From: a virus
Virus genome (UHGV): UHGV-0326994
DNA length: 64,000 nt
Direction: 5' to 3' (one strand)
This document shows positions 588 to 6,355 of the stretch, in pieces. A program made the position numbers and the translations under genes. Each line of letters opens with the position of its first letter. The first letter of the stretch is position 1. Below the pieces are notes generated by a model that was not told where the DNA came from, made no database searches, and worked only from the letters and a program-made list of their open reading frames with translations.

Positions 588-663
588 TGGAGAATCCGAA
601 GGGACTCGAACCCTTATAAACCTGTTTTGCAGACAGGCACATAGCCATTTCTGTCACGGATTC
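588..663 (-). tRNA. tRNA-Cys (GCA)
   Basis: Hand-folded cloverleaf: acceptor GAATCCG/CGGATTC, T-loop GGTTCGAGTCC, anticodon loop CTGCAAA, CCA encoded. Confidence 0.7.
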
Positions 664-667
664 AAAT

Positions 668-760
668 TGGAGGAAGATACCAGACTTGAACTGGTACACC
701 GATTTCTCAGCTACTGGCAGTTTAGCAAACTGCTCCCTTACCTTTTAGGGTTAATCTTCC
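668..760 (-). tRNA. tRNA-Ser (GCT), class II
   Basis: 93 nt, acceptor GGAAGAT/ATCTTCC, anticodon loop TGCTAAA, long variable arm. Confidence 0.65.
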
Positions 761-761
761 A

Positions 762-1496
762 TTATTTCTGTAATGCGCTCTTCATTTCTGGTGTTGCAAT
801 AGTGTCAATCACACCAGTTTTACAAGCATCATCAAACCAGTCTGGTAAGATACCTGCTAAGAACCCATTGATATTCGTTTTAAGGTACTCTGCAATAAGG
901 GCAGCTTCTTCTTCAATCATTTGCACAACTTCATCTGCATAAGCTGTAATCTTTGAGATACCTTCATTAATCTTACTAACAGCCTGATTAGCTAAATCAG
1001 AAACAGTATCAAGACCTTTGTCAATAGCATCTTGTAAGTCACTTAATACGTCATTGACGCTGTCTAATGTGCCGTTAATAGCATCAATAGCTTTTTGACC
1101 ATACTCTGTAGCAACACCCATGATACCGCTGAATGGTGTACAACCAACTTGTTCTCCCGCTGCACCCATAACATTGGAATACCCCTTTGCTACCTGCATA
1201 CGTGATGAAAACTCGTCAATAGACTTTTGACCGTAGTCTGTTAGGGTCTTAGTAGTTGCTGTAGTGCTTGTCAGACTAGTTGTAAAGCTGTTTAGAAGGA
1301 CTGTTGTAAGTCCAGCGGCAACAAGTTTTTCCTTCATTGTAGGGTCTGTTACAGAGCTAATAGAGCTTACAAGTGATGTAGAGGCAGATACGGTTCCACC
1401 GAGAACTGCTGCACCAGTAATAAGTGGGTTAGAAAACCCTTTACCGGTTTTTAAGAGATTAAAAATCTCCTTACCTTGTTCTGTCATCTCTTTCAT
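762..1496 (-). CDS. hypothetical protein (244 aa, Ser/Thr/Ala-rich)
   Basis: ORF track; long ORF between tRNA genes; no recognisable motif. Confidence 0.55.
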   Translation of the reverse strand: MKEMTEQGKEIFNLLKTGKGFSNPLITGAAVLGGTVSASTSLVSSISSVTDPTMKEKLVAAGLTTVLLNSFTTSLTSTTATTKTLTDYGQKSIDEFSSRMQVAKGYSNVMGAAGEQVGCTPFSGIMGVATEYGQKAIDAINGTLDSVNDVLSDLQDAIDKGLDTVSDLANQAVSKINEGISKITAYADEVVQMIEEEAALIAEYLKTNINGFLAGILPDWFDDACKTGVIDTIATPEMKSALQK

Positions 1497-1512
1497 TAAG
1501 CACCTTTAAAAT

Positions 1513-1590
1513 TGGTAGTCCAGTGGGATTTGAACCCTCTTCTCATGTTTTTCAGACACGCGCTTTAACCATATAAGCTACTTGGACTAT
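1513..1590 (-). tRNA. tRNA-Phe (GAA)
   Basis: Acceptor TAGTCCA/TGGACTA, T-loop GGTTCAAATCC, anticodon loop CTGAAAA; D-arm fold ambiguous. Confidence 0.55.
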
Positions 1591-1594
1591 AAAT

Positions 1595-1670
1595 TGGGGT
1601 GACCTACGGGATTTGAACCCGTATAGACCATGTTCACAGCATGGGTCATTACCATTTATGATAAGGCCAC
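1595..1670 (-). tRNA. tRNA-His (GTG)
   Basis: 76 nt, acceptor GTGGCCT/AGGTCAC, D-stem TCAT/ATGA, anticodon loop CTGTGAA. Confidence 0.7.
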
Positions 1671-1701
1671 ATTTAAGGACTCTCGTAAGAACCCTTAGAA
1701 G

Positions 1702-1777
1702 TGGCAGCGGCATAAGGATTTGAACCTTAATAGGACAGCTTCAGAGACTGTTGCATTGCCAGTTATGCTATACCGCT
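1702..1777 (-). tRNA. tRNA-Gln (CTG)
   Basis: 76 nt, acceptor AGCGGTA/TGCCGCT, D-stem GCAT/ATGC, anticodon loop CTCTGAA. Confidence 0.65.
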
Positions 1778-1782
1778 AAATT

Positions 1783-1854
1783 TGGTACTCCATATCGGAT
1801 TCGAACCGATACATAACACAGATTTTAAGTCTGGCCTCTCTGCCAATTGGAGTA
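1783..1854 (-). tRNA. tRNA, anticodon uncertain (loop CTTAAAA reads TAA, Leu-type, in a short class-I body)
   Basis: Acceptor TACTCCA/TGGAGTA and T-arm ATCGG-TTCGAAT-CCGAT clear; anticodon stem only 4 bp. Confidence 0.45.
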
Positions 1855-1863
1855 ATGGAGCAT

Positions 1864-1938
1864 TGGCGGGGGATGTTGGAATTGAACCAACTTCTTCGAT
1901 TTCAAAGACCGAGGTTTTAACCTTGTAAACTAATCCCC
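1864..1938 (-). tRNA. tRNA-Gln (TTG)
   Basis: Acceptor AGGGGAT/ATCCCCC, D-stem GTTT/AAAC, anticodon stem TCGGT/ATCGA, loop CTTTGAA. Confidence 0.65.
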
Positions 1939-1947
1939 TTTAAATCT

Positions 1948-2505
1948 TTACTTTCTTAGTGGATGAATAAAGAATGCCAACATAACTCTTTCCCTTGAGA
2001 ATGCTCTTTCTTCTGGGACAACACTTTTAAGTTTCCATCCAACATAAATTCTCCAGTAGAATTGTTTACCAAAGATTTTAATTGACGGGATAAAAGCGAA
2101 TAAACCCCAAGCATTACTGTTCCACATTAGGAGATAACCTGTCTGATTATCTTCAGGGTTAGAACTTACGTTGATATTACCTTTCCACTTAGTAACATCT
2201 TTTACATCTCTTCCTAACACATGGTAAGAGAAGTTATAAGCTTTGTTTCTCCAGAGCCATCCAACTCTCTGCATGTAAACACCGAGCTTACCAATCTTTC
2301 TAATCTTAGCCCATCGTTTGATATGACCTGCATCACCATCAATTGGGTTGTCATATGTCTCCATCCATCTGAAACCAAAAGGTAGATGGCCTTTCTTCTC
2401 ACTGTAAAATGGGACTACGAAAGGTGCTAAGATAACTGCTAAGATTGCTGCAAATGGCTCTAACAAAGCTAAGAAAATCCATGAAGCATACTTAAAATAT
2501 CTCAT
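1948..2505 (-). CDS. hypothetical membrane protein (185 aa)
   Basis: ORF track; hydrophobic N-terminus (WIFLALLEPFAAILAVILAPFVVPF); start overlaps stop of upstream ORF. Confidence 0.5.
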   Translation of the reverse strand: MRYFKYASWIFLALLEPFAAILAVILAPFVVPFYSEKKGHLPFGFRWMETYDNPIDGDAGHIKRWAKIRKIGKLGVYMQRVGWLWRNKAYNFSYHVLGRDVKDVTKWKGNINVSSNPEDNQTGYLLMWNSNAWGLFAFIPSIKIFGKQFYWRIYVGWKLKSVVPEERAFSRERVMLAFFIHPLRK

Positions 2506-5002: not shown

Positions 5003-5078
5003 TGGTACTGGTAGGTGGAATCGAACCACCGATGTTCCCTTATCAGGGGAGTGTTATAACCTTCTTAACTATACCAGC
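5003..5078 (-). tRNA. tRNA-Ile (GAT)
   Basis: Acceptor GCTGGTA/TACCAGT, D-stem GTTA/TAAC, anticodon loop CTGATAA, T-arm GGTGG-TTCGATT-CCACC. Confidence 0.65.
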
Positions 5079-5079
5079 T

Positions 5080-5156
5080 TGGAGGTTCAGATGGGAATCG
5101 AACCCACATTCATAGGGCTTATGAGACCCCTGCATTACCTTATCTGCGACTGAACC
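5080..5156 (-). tRNA. tRNA-Met (CAT)
   Basis: Acceptor GGTTCAG/CTGAACC, anticodon stem GGGGT/GCCCT, loop CTCATAA. Confidence 0.6.
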
Positions 5157-5160
5157 ATAT

Positions 5161-5235
5161 TGGTAGAAGTGGAGGGATTCGAACCCATCGCCTGTCAGAT
5201 TAAAAGTCTGCCGCATCACCATTCTGCTACACTTC
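5161..5235 (-). tRNA. tRNA-Lys (TTT)
   Basis: Acceptor GAAGTGT/CCACTTC, anticodon stem CAGA/TCTG, loop CTTTTAA; body similar to Lys(CTT) at 3451. Confidence 0.55.
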
Positions 5236-5691
5236 CATTAAATTATCTTTGTAGATAAGCTACCCAGACTTGCTTAAGGTCTGTAGCGATGTGCCTTGTT
5301 GGGTTTAAATCTAGAATTTACCCTTTCACCCTTTGTGGTCGCATACTCACAGGTAAGCTTAATAGCTCACCTACAAAGATAATTACCAGACCGTTGTTTA
5401 TCATCTTAAGTGCTACCATTACACCAACTCGACATCTGCCGAGTGAAGGAATCGAACCTTCGCCTTTTCTTTACCGGAGAAATAGATTGTTTAAGTTTTG
5501 CTGTAAACGGTCTTCTGTAAATTTGTTGAGCCAGACCAAGTTTTAAATTTTCAAAATTAAATTGGCTTGAAATTTCATACATTCTTGCTGAATTTGGTCT
5601 TCTGCTCCTTTAAAGAATACTCGCAAGAACTCTTTAAGGGAGGGGCTAAATAGCCCTCTCAAAACATCATTTTGAAATACTTATTATAATT

Positions 5692-5769
5692 TGGCGGTTA
5701 CGAAGGGATTTGAACCCTCATCATCTCCCGTGACAGGGGAGTATTTTAACCAGATTAAACTACATAACC
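5692..5769 (-). tRNA. tRNA-Asp (GTC)
   Basis: Acceptor GGTTATG/CGTAACC, anticodon stem CTCCC/GGGAG, loop CTGTCAC. Confidence 0.7.
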
Positions 5770-5774
5770 TTTAT

Positions 5775-5862
5775 TGGTGTGCCGTGTAGGAGTCGAACCT
5801 ACCGAGTCTCAATGACAAGGGATTTACAGTCCCCACCGCTACCATCTACGGGATAACGACAC
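5775..5862 (-). tRNA. tRNA-Tyr (GTA), class II
   Basis: 88 nt, acceptor GTGTCGT/ACGGCAC, anticodon stem GGGGA/TCCCT, loop CTGTAAA, long variable arm. Confidence 0.65.
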
Positions 5863-5871
5863 ATTTAAATT

Positions 5872-5948
5872 TGGCGGTTAGTCAGGGATTCGAACCCTGT
5901 GCCATTCGCTTAACAGGCGACCGCACATACCTTATGTGCTTCCTAACC
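5872..5948 (-). tRNA. tRNA-Asn (GTT)
   Basis: Acceptor GGTTAGG/ACTAACC, D-stem GCAC/GTGC, anticodon stem TCGC/GCGA, loop CTGTTAA. Confidence 0.65.
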
Positions 5949-6024
5949 TTAATACATTGCCAGACCGTGTTTTTCTTTTATCCGCAAAAAGTAGTTTGTT
6001 GCTGAATACGGTCTTCTGCAAAAT

Positions 6025-6100
6025 TGGAGGCGGGTGCAGGAGTCGAACCTGCCGATACCATGCTAATGAGACATGTGAGACGCCCTTTCTCTATACCCGC
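6025..6100 (-). tRNA. tRNA-Met (CAT), second copy
   Basis: Acceptor (T)GCGGGT/ACCCGCC, D-stem GAGA/TCTC, anticodon stem CATGT/GCATG, loop CTCATTA. Confidence 0.55.
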
Positions 6101-6193
6101 AATTCTTAATGACCAGACCAAATCTCTTCTTTGTCCGATTGAATGTCAGATGAATAAGATTAAATTTGCTGCAATTGGTCTTCTGTCAAAACT

Positions 6194-6271
6194 GGCGTTC
6201 CAGAAGGGATTTGAACCCTCAAATATCCACTTTGAAAGAGTGGTGACTTTACCATTTTGTCTACTGGAACA
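6194..6271 (-). tRNA. tRNA-Glu (TTC)
   Basis: Acceptor GTTCCAG/CTGGAAC, anticodon stem CCACT/AGTGG, loop CTTTCAA. Confidence 0.7.
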
Positions 6272-6278
6272 TTAATTT

Positions 6279-6355
6279 GGTCTCTGTTGGAGGACTTGAA
6301 CCTCCGGCCTTACCGCCCCAAACGGAACGCTCTACCAAGCTGAGCTAAACAGAGA
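6279..6355 (-). tRNA. tRNA-Pro (TGG)
   Basis: Acceptor CTCTGTT/AACAGAG, D-arm TAGCTCAGCTTGGTAGAGC, anticodon loop TTTGGGG, T-arm GGAGG-TTCAAGT-CCTCC. Confidence 0.65.

Follow-up and report, generated by a model that had tools for sequence, protein, structure and literature searches.

This study concerns a 64,000-nucleotide (nt) stretch of the viral genome UHGV-0326994 (hereafter, the window), and in particular four structured RNA modules, M1 to M4, which are interleaved with tRNA genes and lie downstream of a gene for a Ro60-like protein. With ~96% identity to known phages, the window represents a Felixounavirus genome. On the basis of sequence and predicted structure, we consider it probable, at roughly 70%, that M1–M4 are partner RNAs of the Ro-like protein, in the manner of Y RNAs. 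To our knowledge, the RNA partner of the Ro60-like gene of Felix O1-type phages was not known. The value of the finding lies in these Y-like modules and in their family, while the array, its HNH gene and its short-armed Leu tRNAs are ordinary for this group of phages.

The modules M1–M4 and the Ro60-like protein

The pattern AGAAGACC-N5-CAGCAA occurs four times on the minus strand of the window, against 0.02 occurrences expected, and each copy is followed by GGUCUGG 40–120 nt further 3′. The minimum free energy (MFE) folds of all four copies share one closure, in which a lower helix and the upper helix AGACCNN/NNGGUCU are separated by the internal loop AGA/G. The inner positions NN of the upper helix differ between the paralogues, being either GU/AC or AA/UU. 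The 4-bp lower helices also differ from copy to copy (UGAC/GUCA, UUGC/GCAA, GAGC/GCUC and UUAC/GUAA). All the modules have a terminal stem that covaries, carry (U)UACAGCAA as their motif and show CUG on the 3′ side. All four are on the minus strand, the strand of every gene in the array. The short module M1 (6110–6188), located between tRNA-Glu and tRNA-Met, was found by the pattern search, is supported by its MFE fold and is conserved in relatives; its lower helix UGAC/GUCA, internal loop AGA/G and upper helix AGACCAA/UUGGUCU are followed by UUGCAGCAA. The short modules M2 (5957–6021), between tRNA-Met and tRNA-Asn, and M3 (5528–5607) both carry the motif AUUCAGCAA. The long module M4 (5383–5520; ~138 nt) shows the arrangement CAGAAGACC...UUACAGCAA and holds a permuted tRNA-like domain inside the common frame.

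The modules are conserved in Felix O1, VpaE1, SUSP2, Moogle, HP1, 3HA14 and Sf17, that is, in the genera Felixounavirus, Suspvirus and Mooglevirus, and compensatory changes were observed in their lower helices and in the acceptor-like hairpin of M4. For instance, the lower helix of M2 covaries between strains (UUGC/GCAA versus UUAC/GUAA), and that of M3 is GAGC/GCUC in the window and GGAGC/GUUCC in Mooglevirus. The tRNA-like domain of M4 (5410–5482) comprises a hairpin (5482–5466), a T arm (5461–5445; GAAGG-UUCGAUU-CCUUC), a closed acceptor-like hairpin (5444–5427) and a D arm (5424–5410), an order that corresponds to a tRNA opened between its D and anticodon arms. In an alignment of M4 from seven sequences, pairing is kept in 97% of the cells. 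The acceptor-like hairpin is 100% paired although three of its seven pairs are changed on both sides (ACUCGGC/GUCGAGU, ACACGUU/GGCGUGU and ACCCUUC/GAAGGGU). Part of M4 (5444–5494) is matched by the Rfam tRNA model at 22 bits, and the SUSP2 homologue at 31.3 bits.

Homologues of M4 have received a variety of labels in database records, including 'permuted tmRNA', 'tRNA pseudogene', 'tRNA-Thr' and 'tRNA-OTHER' (Citrobacter phage Moogle, L006:5280-6028; records H26, H119, H121 and H152). In Moogle, ARAGORN reads the homologue as the acceptor part of a 'permuted tmRNA', where tmRNA stands for transfer-messenger RNA. For annotators this means that several of the 'tRNA pseudogene', 'tRNA-Thr' and 'permuted tmRNA' calls in the Ounavirinae are probably misread Y-like RNAs.

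The original prediction, which was made from the letters of the window alone, had suggested that some spacers of the array may be small stable RNAs. The conserved, covarying modules with their predicted folds bear this out. However, the clearest non-tRNA RNAs lie at 5383–5607, 5957–6021 and 6110–6188 rather than in the spacers that had been named and described as lacking a T-loop, and one of these RNAs, M4, contains a T-loop. Moreover, instead of generic small RNAs or processing elements, the modules form a definable family tied to the adjacent Ro60-like gene.

This gene (6520–7935, minus strand; 471 aa) lies directly upstream of the tRNA array in the same orientation, outside the coordinates of the original prediction. 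Its product matches the Pfam domains DUF2828 and DUF7788, as well as phrog_850, 'RNA-binding protein'. In the AlphaFold2 model, for which the predicted local distance difference test score (pLDDT) was 87.6, a ring of alpha-helical HEAT-like repeats is closed by a von Willebrand factor A (vWA) domain, the arrangement that characterizes Ro60/TROVE-vWA proteins. The 12 best Foldseek matches of this model in the PDB were all Ro60/TROVE structures, with E values of 8e-9 to 9e-7 and template modelling (TM) scores of 0.49–0.66. The alignments spanned the full length, with ~520–560 aligned columns, and the matches, Xenopus Ro60 among them, included 9kop, 2i91, 1yvp, Ro60 of Thermus phage phiLo (9l5y) and Deinococcus Rsr (2nvo). 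According to the model, the 6520–7935 product thus has a Ro60 fold.

Homologues of the protein were found in 710 phage records, and those of mycobacteriophages are annotated as 'Ro-like RNA binding protein'. In mycobacteriophage Nicholas, the gap 3′ of the DUF2828 homologue contains a YrlA-like RNA (37.9 bits) that is framed by GGACCCC-CACAGCAA...GGGGUCC-AG, i.e. by the common stem and CAGCAA frame. It has been reported that Ro60 genes of bacteria and phages adjoin their own Y RNA genes (PMC4201824; PMC12135203), and that YrlA RNAs mimic tRNA, with an order of arms like that in M4 (PMC4201824). In the Felixounavirus Bas63, the Ro60-like gp130 was reported to counter the Ppl defence system; its authors guessed that some annotated tRNAs are in fact Y RNAs, and identified none (preprint 10.1101/2024.10.10.617714).

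Two further stretches among the tRNA genes deserve mention. The spacer at 3109–3204 (minus strand), between tRNA-Thr and tRNA-Val, forms a long hairpin (z = −3.4) and shows 95–97% conservation between genera. Its GAAGACCGUAACAA may be what is left, in degenerate form, of the 5′ motif of the modules. The stretch at 5237–5377 (minus strand; ~140 nt) was found in Felixounavirus loci only, with no match in the SUSP2 or Mooglevirus loci searched. It is bounded by a 13-bp inverted repeat (AUUAUCUUUGUAG / CUACAAAGAUAAU) and could be an insertion or another structured RNA.

An RNA family beside DUF2828 genes

The common frame was sought in 75 diverse viral contigs encoding DUF2828 homologues at 39–48% identity, using a strict pattern that demanded a perfect 6-bp stem starting with G, then N3 and CAGCAA, and a 3′ strand that ends in C and is followed by N and G. 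This pattern was found 90 times on the strand of the DUF2828 gene and five times on the opposite strand, whereas shuffled sequences yielded 0–1 matches. Within 1 kb of the DUF2828 gene lay 68 of the 90 gene-strand matches, and none was inside the gene. The members, with a median length of 59 nt, comprise 41 distinct stem sequences. Their closing G-C pair is present in 41/41, and each of the other six stem pairs shows two to four pair types. Furthermore, an extra flanking pair, which was outside the selection criteria, is paired in 39 of the 41 (AU in 30, UA in 7 and GC in 2).

A covariance model, R1, was built from 41 short members, with the sequences of the Felix group excluded. The top three R1 matches in the whole window were M2 (33.1 bits, E 1e-6), M1 (26.2 bits, E 9e-5) and M3 (20.4 bits, E 0.004), which are significant scores on the strand of the nearby DUF2828 gene. 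M4 reached just 13.3 bits because of its 90-nt insert. Two other R1 matches, at 62791–62846 (plus strand, 20.0 bits) and 53557–53615 (minus strand, 17.4 bits), are weak, lie inside open reading frames and are probably due to chance. In the 75 viral contigs, which include the training sequences, R1 gave 75 matches at E ≤0.05, distributed over 52 loci. As a second test set, we used 80 bacterial contigs and contigs of metagenome-assembled genomes (MAGs) with DUF2828 homologues at 33–42% identity, none of which had been used in training; here, R1 gave 65 matches at 42 loci. All matches in both sets are on the gene strand. Those in the bacterial/MAG set are mostly located just upstream of the DUF2828 gene. 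Several family members abut the start codon. The link is supported by a motif search of IMG/VR, limited by the shortness of the stored pieces, in which a DUF2828 gene accompanied 19 of 62 motifs with the 3′ stem, always on the same strand, and 3 of 62 motifs without the stem.

The family is also present in giant-virus-type contigs, namely one contig of a giant-virus MAG and two contigs, of 297 and 319 kb, with eukaryote-type genes. These encode a clade of 566–575-aa DUF2828 proteins, and three to five tandem R1 matches, several of them followed by T-runs, lie just downstream of the gene (L121:11170-11700; L210:5840-6270; L213:5850-6240). In L210 and L213, a tRNA gene follows the tandem modules. 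A fourth giant-virus-type contig (467 kb) had no R1 match. When a giant-virus DUF2828 homologue was used as a protein query, all matches were unnamed metagenomic proteins. Another viral contig, L033, holds long members that score 38 and 34.8 bits against YrlA; since such long members enclose YrlA-like domains, the family has both short and long forms. A further element, in Aeromonas phage LAh_8 (L004:3949-4065; 117 nt), scores 49 bits as a tRNA and carries UUACAGCAA within an insertion of ~45 nt, which makes it a possible tRNA–module hybrid. Altogether, M1–M4 belong to a widespread and apparently undescribed family that is missing from Rfam.

Conceivably, the modules could be no more than punctuation for tRNA maturation, guiding RNase E, RNase III or RNase P without any link to the Ro-like protein. 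Stems that flank tRNAs are common processing signals, the modules of the window phage sit exactly between tRNA genes, and the folding z-scores of the single sequences are modest. Even so, we regard this explanation as improbable: the frame recurs by DUF2828 genes at loci where no tRNA adjoins the module, as in phage LAh_8, where at least four tandem modules are located directly upstream, and 100% of the R1 matches in two test sets fall on the gene strand. Besides, punctuation needs neither a conserved single-stranded motif of 8–9 nt nor an embedded tRNA-like domain.

The close association with the gene raises another possibility, namely that the modules are cis-acting sites on the DUF2828 mRNA, such as autoregulatory operators or leader and trailer elements to which the protein binds, and not separate RNAs. 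Most members indeed share the strand of the gene and lie no more than 1 kb away, just upstream or downstream of it, and the copies that abut the start codon would suit such a role. Nevertheless, a promoter-like site distinct from the gene precedes the modules of the window, which alternate with tRNAs 330–2,550 nt past the stop codon of the gene, and tandem sets can number as many as eight modules. In addition, long members carry full tRNA-like domains, as do free YrlA RNAs, while the T-runs behind several giant-virus copies make these look like independent small genes. A role as cis-acting sites is therefore unlikely in our judgement.

Several observations weigh against M1–M4 being Y-type partners of a Ro-like protein. 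By sequence, the 6520–7935 product does not match TROVE, as Pfam gives just DUF2828 and DUF7788; no Ro60 was retrieved from the PDB sequences by phmmer or by a profile search, the NCBIfam scan was empty, and the protein resembles Ro60 by fold alone, at 12–16% identity. The Y RNA motif GNCGAA/CGAA is absent from the modules, which have (U)UACAGCAA directly after the 5′ stem strand. M4 had no match to the Rfam YrlA model (gathering score 69 bits), neither in a search of the 6-kb region nor when searched alone at E ≤10, and it was therefore not filed as a YrlA member. As the training sequences of R1 were chosen by a pattern demanding perfect stems, the pairing in its alignment is partly there by construction. 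The folding z-scores of single modules range from −0.5 to −2.0 (MFE). Finally, about one-third of the DUF2828 loci have no module within the flanks examined.

The location, strand bias, covariation and cross-set detection of the modules are shown here, and we infer their transcription, processing and binding along the following lines. The Felix O1-like tRNA operon encodes ~27 tRNAs and four Y RNA-like non-coding RNAs (ncRNAs), three of them short (~60–80 nt) and one long (~138 nt), with the permuted tRNA-like domain inserted in the common frame. This frame, a terminal stem in which the sequence varies and the pairing is kept, with an invariant G-C closure, (U)UACAGCAA on the 5′ side and UG on the 3′ side, is the signature of a family situated beside DUF2828 genes, on the gene strand, in unrelated phages, in prophages or bacterial MAGs, and in giant-virus contigs. 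The RNAs would be co-transcribed with the tRNAs from a promoter near 6400 and released by the nucleases that process the flanking tRNAs. Stem and motif would then bind the Ro-like protein, as Y RNAs bind Ro60, and in infected cells the resulting ribonucleoproteins might direct the decay or repair of RNA or counteract the defences of the host.

With four candidate partners of the Ro60-like protein named by their exact coordinates, and with a sequence-structure signature that finds hundreds more modules, binding, deletion and small-RNA experiments can be designed at once. At the same time, an RNA family that is absent from Rfam is now tied to the DUF2828 domain, which is abundant in phages, in contigs that bin with gut Clostridia and in giant viruses.

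The surrounding tRNA array and its spacers

The array itself (588–6354, minus strand) contains 25 tRNA genes according to ARAGORN, with CCA encoded, and is interrupted by three protein genes (762–1496, 1948–2505 and 2502–2744) and one HNH gene. Elements were accepted as tRNAs if their cloverleaf reached the Rfam gathering score (29 bits) or if they were called by ARAGORN. The Rfam tRNA model (RF00005) gave 24 matches of 31.7–65.2 bits, of which the one at 4557–4635 scored 31.7 bits; tRNA-Tyr and the tRNA-Met at 6025–6101 were called by ARAGORN only. A Trp-like gene at 3971–4053 was called as a tRNA by neither method. Counting this gene and the tRNA-like gene at 4554–4635 together with the 25 ARAGORN calls, the total is 27, and provided that the Trp-like gene is included, all 20 amino acids are covered. 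The near-complete set of about 27 tRNA genes described in the original prediction is thus confirmed.

When compared with many Felixounavirus genomes, including those of Escherichia phage JN01 and Salmonella phage Felix O1, the region 500–6500 was 95–96% identical over 98% of its length. Records of this genus already annotate the tRNA array, the variable HNH genes and the upstream gene, which RefSeq names 'RNA-binding protein', and the same array is annotated in Felix O1, VpaE1, SUSP2, Moogle and Sf17. Hence, the array as such is already known. A near-complete set, CCA ends and strain-variable HNH genes are features it shares with the large tRNA arrays of other lytic phages (Felix O1, T5, T4-like), and against the deposited Felixounavirus genomes, with their 95–96% identity in sequence and the same gene order, there is no array-level difference. 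The array, its HNH gene and the short-armed Leu tRNAs described below are real but ordinary for this group of phages.

The start of the tRNA/ncRNA operon is probably marked by a sigma-70-type promoter-like site at 6381–6410 (minus strand), immediately upstream of tRNA-Pro, in which TTGACA, an 18-nt spacer and TAAAGT with a TG extension give 10/12 matches. This is a consensus match only, and the overall count of promoter-like sites in the region was no higher than in shuffled controls.

Several tRNA genes are atypical, a separate matter that reflects the divergence of phage tRNA genes and HNH-linked gene turnover. Direct parsing upheld the claim that three tRNAs with Leu anticodons have short bodies: tRNA-Leu(UAA) at 1783–1861, tRNA-Leu(CAA) at 2955–3032 and tRNA-Leu(UAG) at 3534–3611 (all on the minus strand and called by ARAGORN; Rfam scores 47.5, 43.6 and 40.0 bits) have variable regions of 7, 6 and 5 nt, respectively. 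These genes of 78–79 nt including CCA lack the long variable arm, a stem-loop of >10 nt, that is expected of bacterial class II tRNA-Leu; tRNA-Leu(UAA) has a 3-bp D stem of the class II type. By direct reading, the discriminator is A73 in 3/3, and their Sf17 homologues were called Leu by tRNAscan-SE. The leucyl-tRNA synthetase of Escherichia coli depends on A73 and on tertiary elements of the D and T loops, and does not rely on the variable arm; by analogy, charging of the short-armed tRNAs with leucine is plausible. For tRNA-Val(UAC) (Rfam 55.8 bits), the anticodon stem had been described as non-pairing. It is indeed weak, with two C:A mismatches, but three of its five pairs are formed. The same stem has four of five pairs and one C:A in Felix O1, and relatives have U:U at 30:40. 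An additional atypical member, overlooked in the original prediction, is the tRNA-Met(CAU) at 6025–6101 (minus strand), between M1 and M2. Its MFE fold is a clean cloverleaf, and there was no Rfam tRNA match to it even at E ≤10. It has a U1:C72 mismatch, an initiator-like trait.

The aberrant tRNA-Trp(CCA)-like gene (3971–4053, minus strand; 83 nt) is conserved in three genera. About 8 additional nt separate its acceptor stem from the D stem, which has 3 bp. Covariation is seen both in the anticodon stem (ACGG/CCGU versus UAAG/CUUA) and in the D stem (CUC/GAG versus CAC/GUG). The only Rfam match is to tRNA-Sec, at 23 bits; the VpaE1 record says tRNA-Trp.

The HNH endonuclease that had been noted inside the array is confirmed as well. 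The gene (4191–4538, minus strand; 115 aa) matches phrog_2255 (E 1e-39) and three other HNH PHROGs; a Pfam scan gave no match. Next to it, at 4554–4635 (minus strand), is the tRNA-like gene that had been said to lack a canonical D/anticodon fold. The D arm is indeed missing and is deleted in the Rfam tRNA alignment (31.7 bits), whereas the anticodon hairpin is canonical (GCGGU-CUUCUAA-ACCGC, anticodon UCU) and is maintained in the relative L014 by a compensatory double change from G-C to U-A. Its other parts are an acceptor stem of 7 bp, a T arm, a variable region of 23 nt and a CCA that is encoded. A normal 77-nt tRNA-Arg(UCU) occupies this position in every relative examined from Suspvirus and Mooglevirus and in some Felixounavirus strains. 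Among the latter is contig L010, which has no HNH gene at the position of 4191–4538 and carries a canonical tRNA-Arg(UCU). In our reading, the 4554–4635 element is an HNH-linked allele that substitutes for tRNA-Arg(UCU). The position of the HNH gene is taken in Shigella phage Sf17 (L009:6670-6790) by an RNA of ~120 nt whose acceptor stem, T arm and GCCA end are of tRNA type and enclose a non-tRNA interior of 85 nt.

These elements bear on the idea that the odd members of the array, including M4, are decaying tRNA pseudogenes or scars of homing endonucleases, devoid of function. HNH genes come and go in the array, and the 4554–4635 element replaces tRNA-Arg in some strains only, being located beside the HNH gene here, while the HNH-free relative is normal; the M4 region, moreover, has been labelled 'tRNA pseudogene', 'tRNA-OTHER' or 'tRNA-Thr' by annotators. 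Decay, however, is hard to reconcile with compensatory changes that keep the helices of M4, of the Trp-like gene and of the UCU hairpin intact, or with modules conserved in three genera and a family that spans phages, bacterial contigs and giant viruses. We thus judge this explanation to be very improbable and retain the Y-like reading of the modules.

As for the spacers named in the original prediction, the strong hairpins that it reported in two of them, 3612–3867 (given there as 3612–3865) and 4054–4190 (both minus strand), are supported by folding and by conservation across three genera. The former contains several hairpins and a terminator-like AAAGACC...GGUCUUUUU with a U-run; its central 130 columns are nearly invariant among Felixounavirus, Suspvirus and Mooglevirus, and of 64 predicted pairs, three have compensatory changes. 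The latter has hairpins, and direct reading reveals a promoter-like TTTACA-N17-TAAGCT just upstream of the Trp-like gene. Neither spacer was matched by Rfam. The named spacers were also considered as members of the module family, which was rejected, as R1 found nothing in 3612–3867, 4054–4190 or 4640–5000.

In the third spacer (4640–4987, minus strand), a promoter precedes a structured RNA that is conserved and contains a tag frame resembling that of tmRNA. The promoter (4987–4959; TTGACA-17-TATAGT) agrees with the consensus at 11/12 positions and is the best match in the region. The tag frame (4818–4786), GCAAACGACAAUGUUUUUCUGGCAGUAGCUUGA, translates to ANDNVFLAVA*, and an identical tag is reported by ARAGORN in Moogle. 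Across three genera, the tag shows only two substitutions, both of them silent in frame, and the hairpin downstream of it covaries (UGAGG/CCUCA versus CAGGG/CCCUG). As in enterobacterial ssrA, the frame starts with GCAAACGAC, and its stop codon is located in a hairpin, which are points of likeness to tmRNA (RF00023) and two-piece tmRNA (RF04321). The Rfam tmRNA and tmRNA_permuted models nevertheless matched the tag weakly, at 11.9 and 20.3 bits against a gathering score of 47. For this RNA, no tRNA-like domain in a valid topology was found, and we therefore classed 4640–4987 as a tmRNA-derived element. Immediately 3′ of the RNA with the tag comes the 4554–4635 element, in which G3:U70 and A73 make up the identity set for alanine. 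It is the sole neighbouring element with G3:U70 and is missing from the relatives that keep the tag, which have a normal tRNA-Arg in its place.

A related proposal would combine M4 with the tag RNA (4640–4950) into a two-piece, permuted tmRNA and leave the other modules unrelated. It draws on the ARAGORN call in Moogle, where a 'tmRNA*' with ANDNVFLAVA spans both the M4 homologue and the tag, on the sequence GCCA in the loop of the M4 acceptor hairpin of Moogle and HP1, and on the conservation of the tag through silent changes only. Against this, the two parts are ~600 nt apart with three tRNA genes between them, and no relative has G3:U70 in the M4 acceptor stem, the 3:70 pair being C-G in the window and A-U in HP1. 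CCA is missing from the hairpin loop in Felix O1, SUSP2, Sf17 and the window, a comparable ARAGORN call was obtained neither in the window nor in SUSP2 or Sf17, and the frame of M4 is common to M1–M3 and to YrlA-like members of the DUF2828 family. In view of the missing G3:U70, the loop without CCA in the window phage and the three intervening tRNA genes, we rejected this highly unlikely proposal in favour of M4 as a long Y-like RNA.

Comparison with known Y RNAs and Dictyostelium Class I RNAs

The proposed system has much in common with the bacterial and phage Y RNAs that accompany Ro60 or Rsr (YrlA, RF02553; YrlB; Yrl1 and Yrl2 of phiLo). In both cases, the RNA genes neighbour a gene whose product is a ring of Ro60 fold with a vWA domain and share its strand, and the RNAs have a terminal stem formed by their 5′ and 3′ ends with a conserved, purine-rich motif adjacent to it. 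Short and long forms coexist in the DUF2828-linked family, as do YrlB and YrlA in Salmonella. In the Rfam consensus of YrlA, the order of T arm, closed acceptor-like hairpin and D arm is that of the long form M4, and long DUF2828-linked members elsewhere score 35–38 bits as YrlA. Like a YrlA RNA, which is encoded beside a Ro60 orthologue, M4 is located 1.0 kb downstream of its gene on the same strand, although this gene is a DUF2828 paralogue and not a TROVE orthologue. The protein of the window thus differs from TROVE Ro60 in belonging to DUF2828/DUF7788. M4 differs from YrlA by an extra hairpin at the place of the variable arm, and the modules differ from known Y RNAs in that they alternate with true tRNA genes.

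Apart from tRNA, YrlA and tmRNA, the sole Rfam family that matched the modules was RF01414, the Dictyostelium Class I RNAs. Nine matches were obtained in four virus groups, with scores of 12.8–30.8 bits, all below the gathering score of 41.5. The best scores outside the window were 30.8, 29.8, 29.6, 28.0 and 27.9 bits, and in the window, M2 and M4 scored 20.0 and 12.8 bits. Class I RNAs have been described as RNAs of 42–65 nt that are encoded by many gene copies and have a short stem joining their ends, in which structure is conserved and sequence is not; the description is completed by an invariant 5′ G that follows AA, by a motif of 11 nt adjoining the 5′ strand of the stem and by a 3′ CUGU, and they were reported to be unique to Dictyostelia (PMC7919456). 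The search pattern used for them was GTTGRCCTTACAGCAA...GTCAACTG (PMC5054030).

The viral consensus, AAG-stem-(U)UACAGCAA ... A-rich tail ... stem-CUG(U/A), shares many of these features with Class I RNAs (RF01414; Aspegren 2004, Avesson 2011, Kjellin 2021). Both have a short terminal stem of conserved pairing and variable sequence, and the invariant 5′ G/3′ C pair, usually preceded by A residues, was found in all 41 stems of the viral modules. The two also resemble each other in having a variable middle with a tail rich in A, CUG(U) on the 3′ side, ~60 nt in length and many clustered copies. The commonest viral form of the motif, UUACAGCAA, which is found in M4 whereas M1 has UUGCAGCAA and M2 and M3 have AUUCAGCAA, covers nine of the 11 nt of the Class I motif CCUUACAGCAA and lies 1 nt closer to the stem. 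A sequence-only hidden Markov model (HMM) made from phage modules detected 21 of 25 distinct Class I RNAs in the curated D. discoideum set, and 17 scored higher than any of 5,000 shuffles. Conversely, a model made from Dictyostelium sequences only gave 10 matches at E ≤1 in 1.13 Mb of viral loci, and eight of these were R1 modules on the gene strand. There are also differences, as the stem of the window modules is lengthened by the extra lower helix and the AGA/G internal loop, and the direct binder of Class I RNAs in Dictyostelium is Rnp1A/CIBP, a protein with RNA recognition motifs (RRM) that is not Ro-like. The Dictyostelium upstream sequence element (DUSE), a promoter ~60 nt upstream, and the T-run of the RNA polymerase III type form a promoter context that the viral RNAs lack and that is inapplicable to a phage operon.

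Tentatively, then, Class I RNAs could be eukaryotic members of the stem-UUACAGCAA RNA family, related to it by descent or by horizontal transfer, a kinship that we consider possible while leaning somewhat against it. With the same reserve, the Ro60 superfamily may have a second branch, defined by DUF2828 and extending over phages, prophages, giant viruses and eukaryotes, to which the stem-UUACAGCAA RNAs would belong as cognate 'Y RNAs'. If the kinship is true, a twenty-year-old orphan class of RNAs gains both a hypothesis of RNA surveillance of the Ro/Y type and a viral connection, and a protein of the DUF2828 type, perhaps the pull-down partner DDB_G0281243, would be the predicted partner of the Class I RNAs in Dictyostelium, just as the 6520–7935 product is the probable partner of M1–M4 in the phage.

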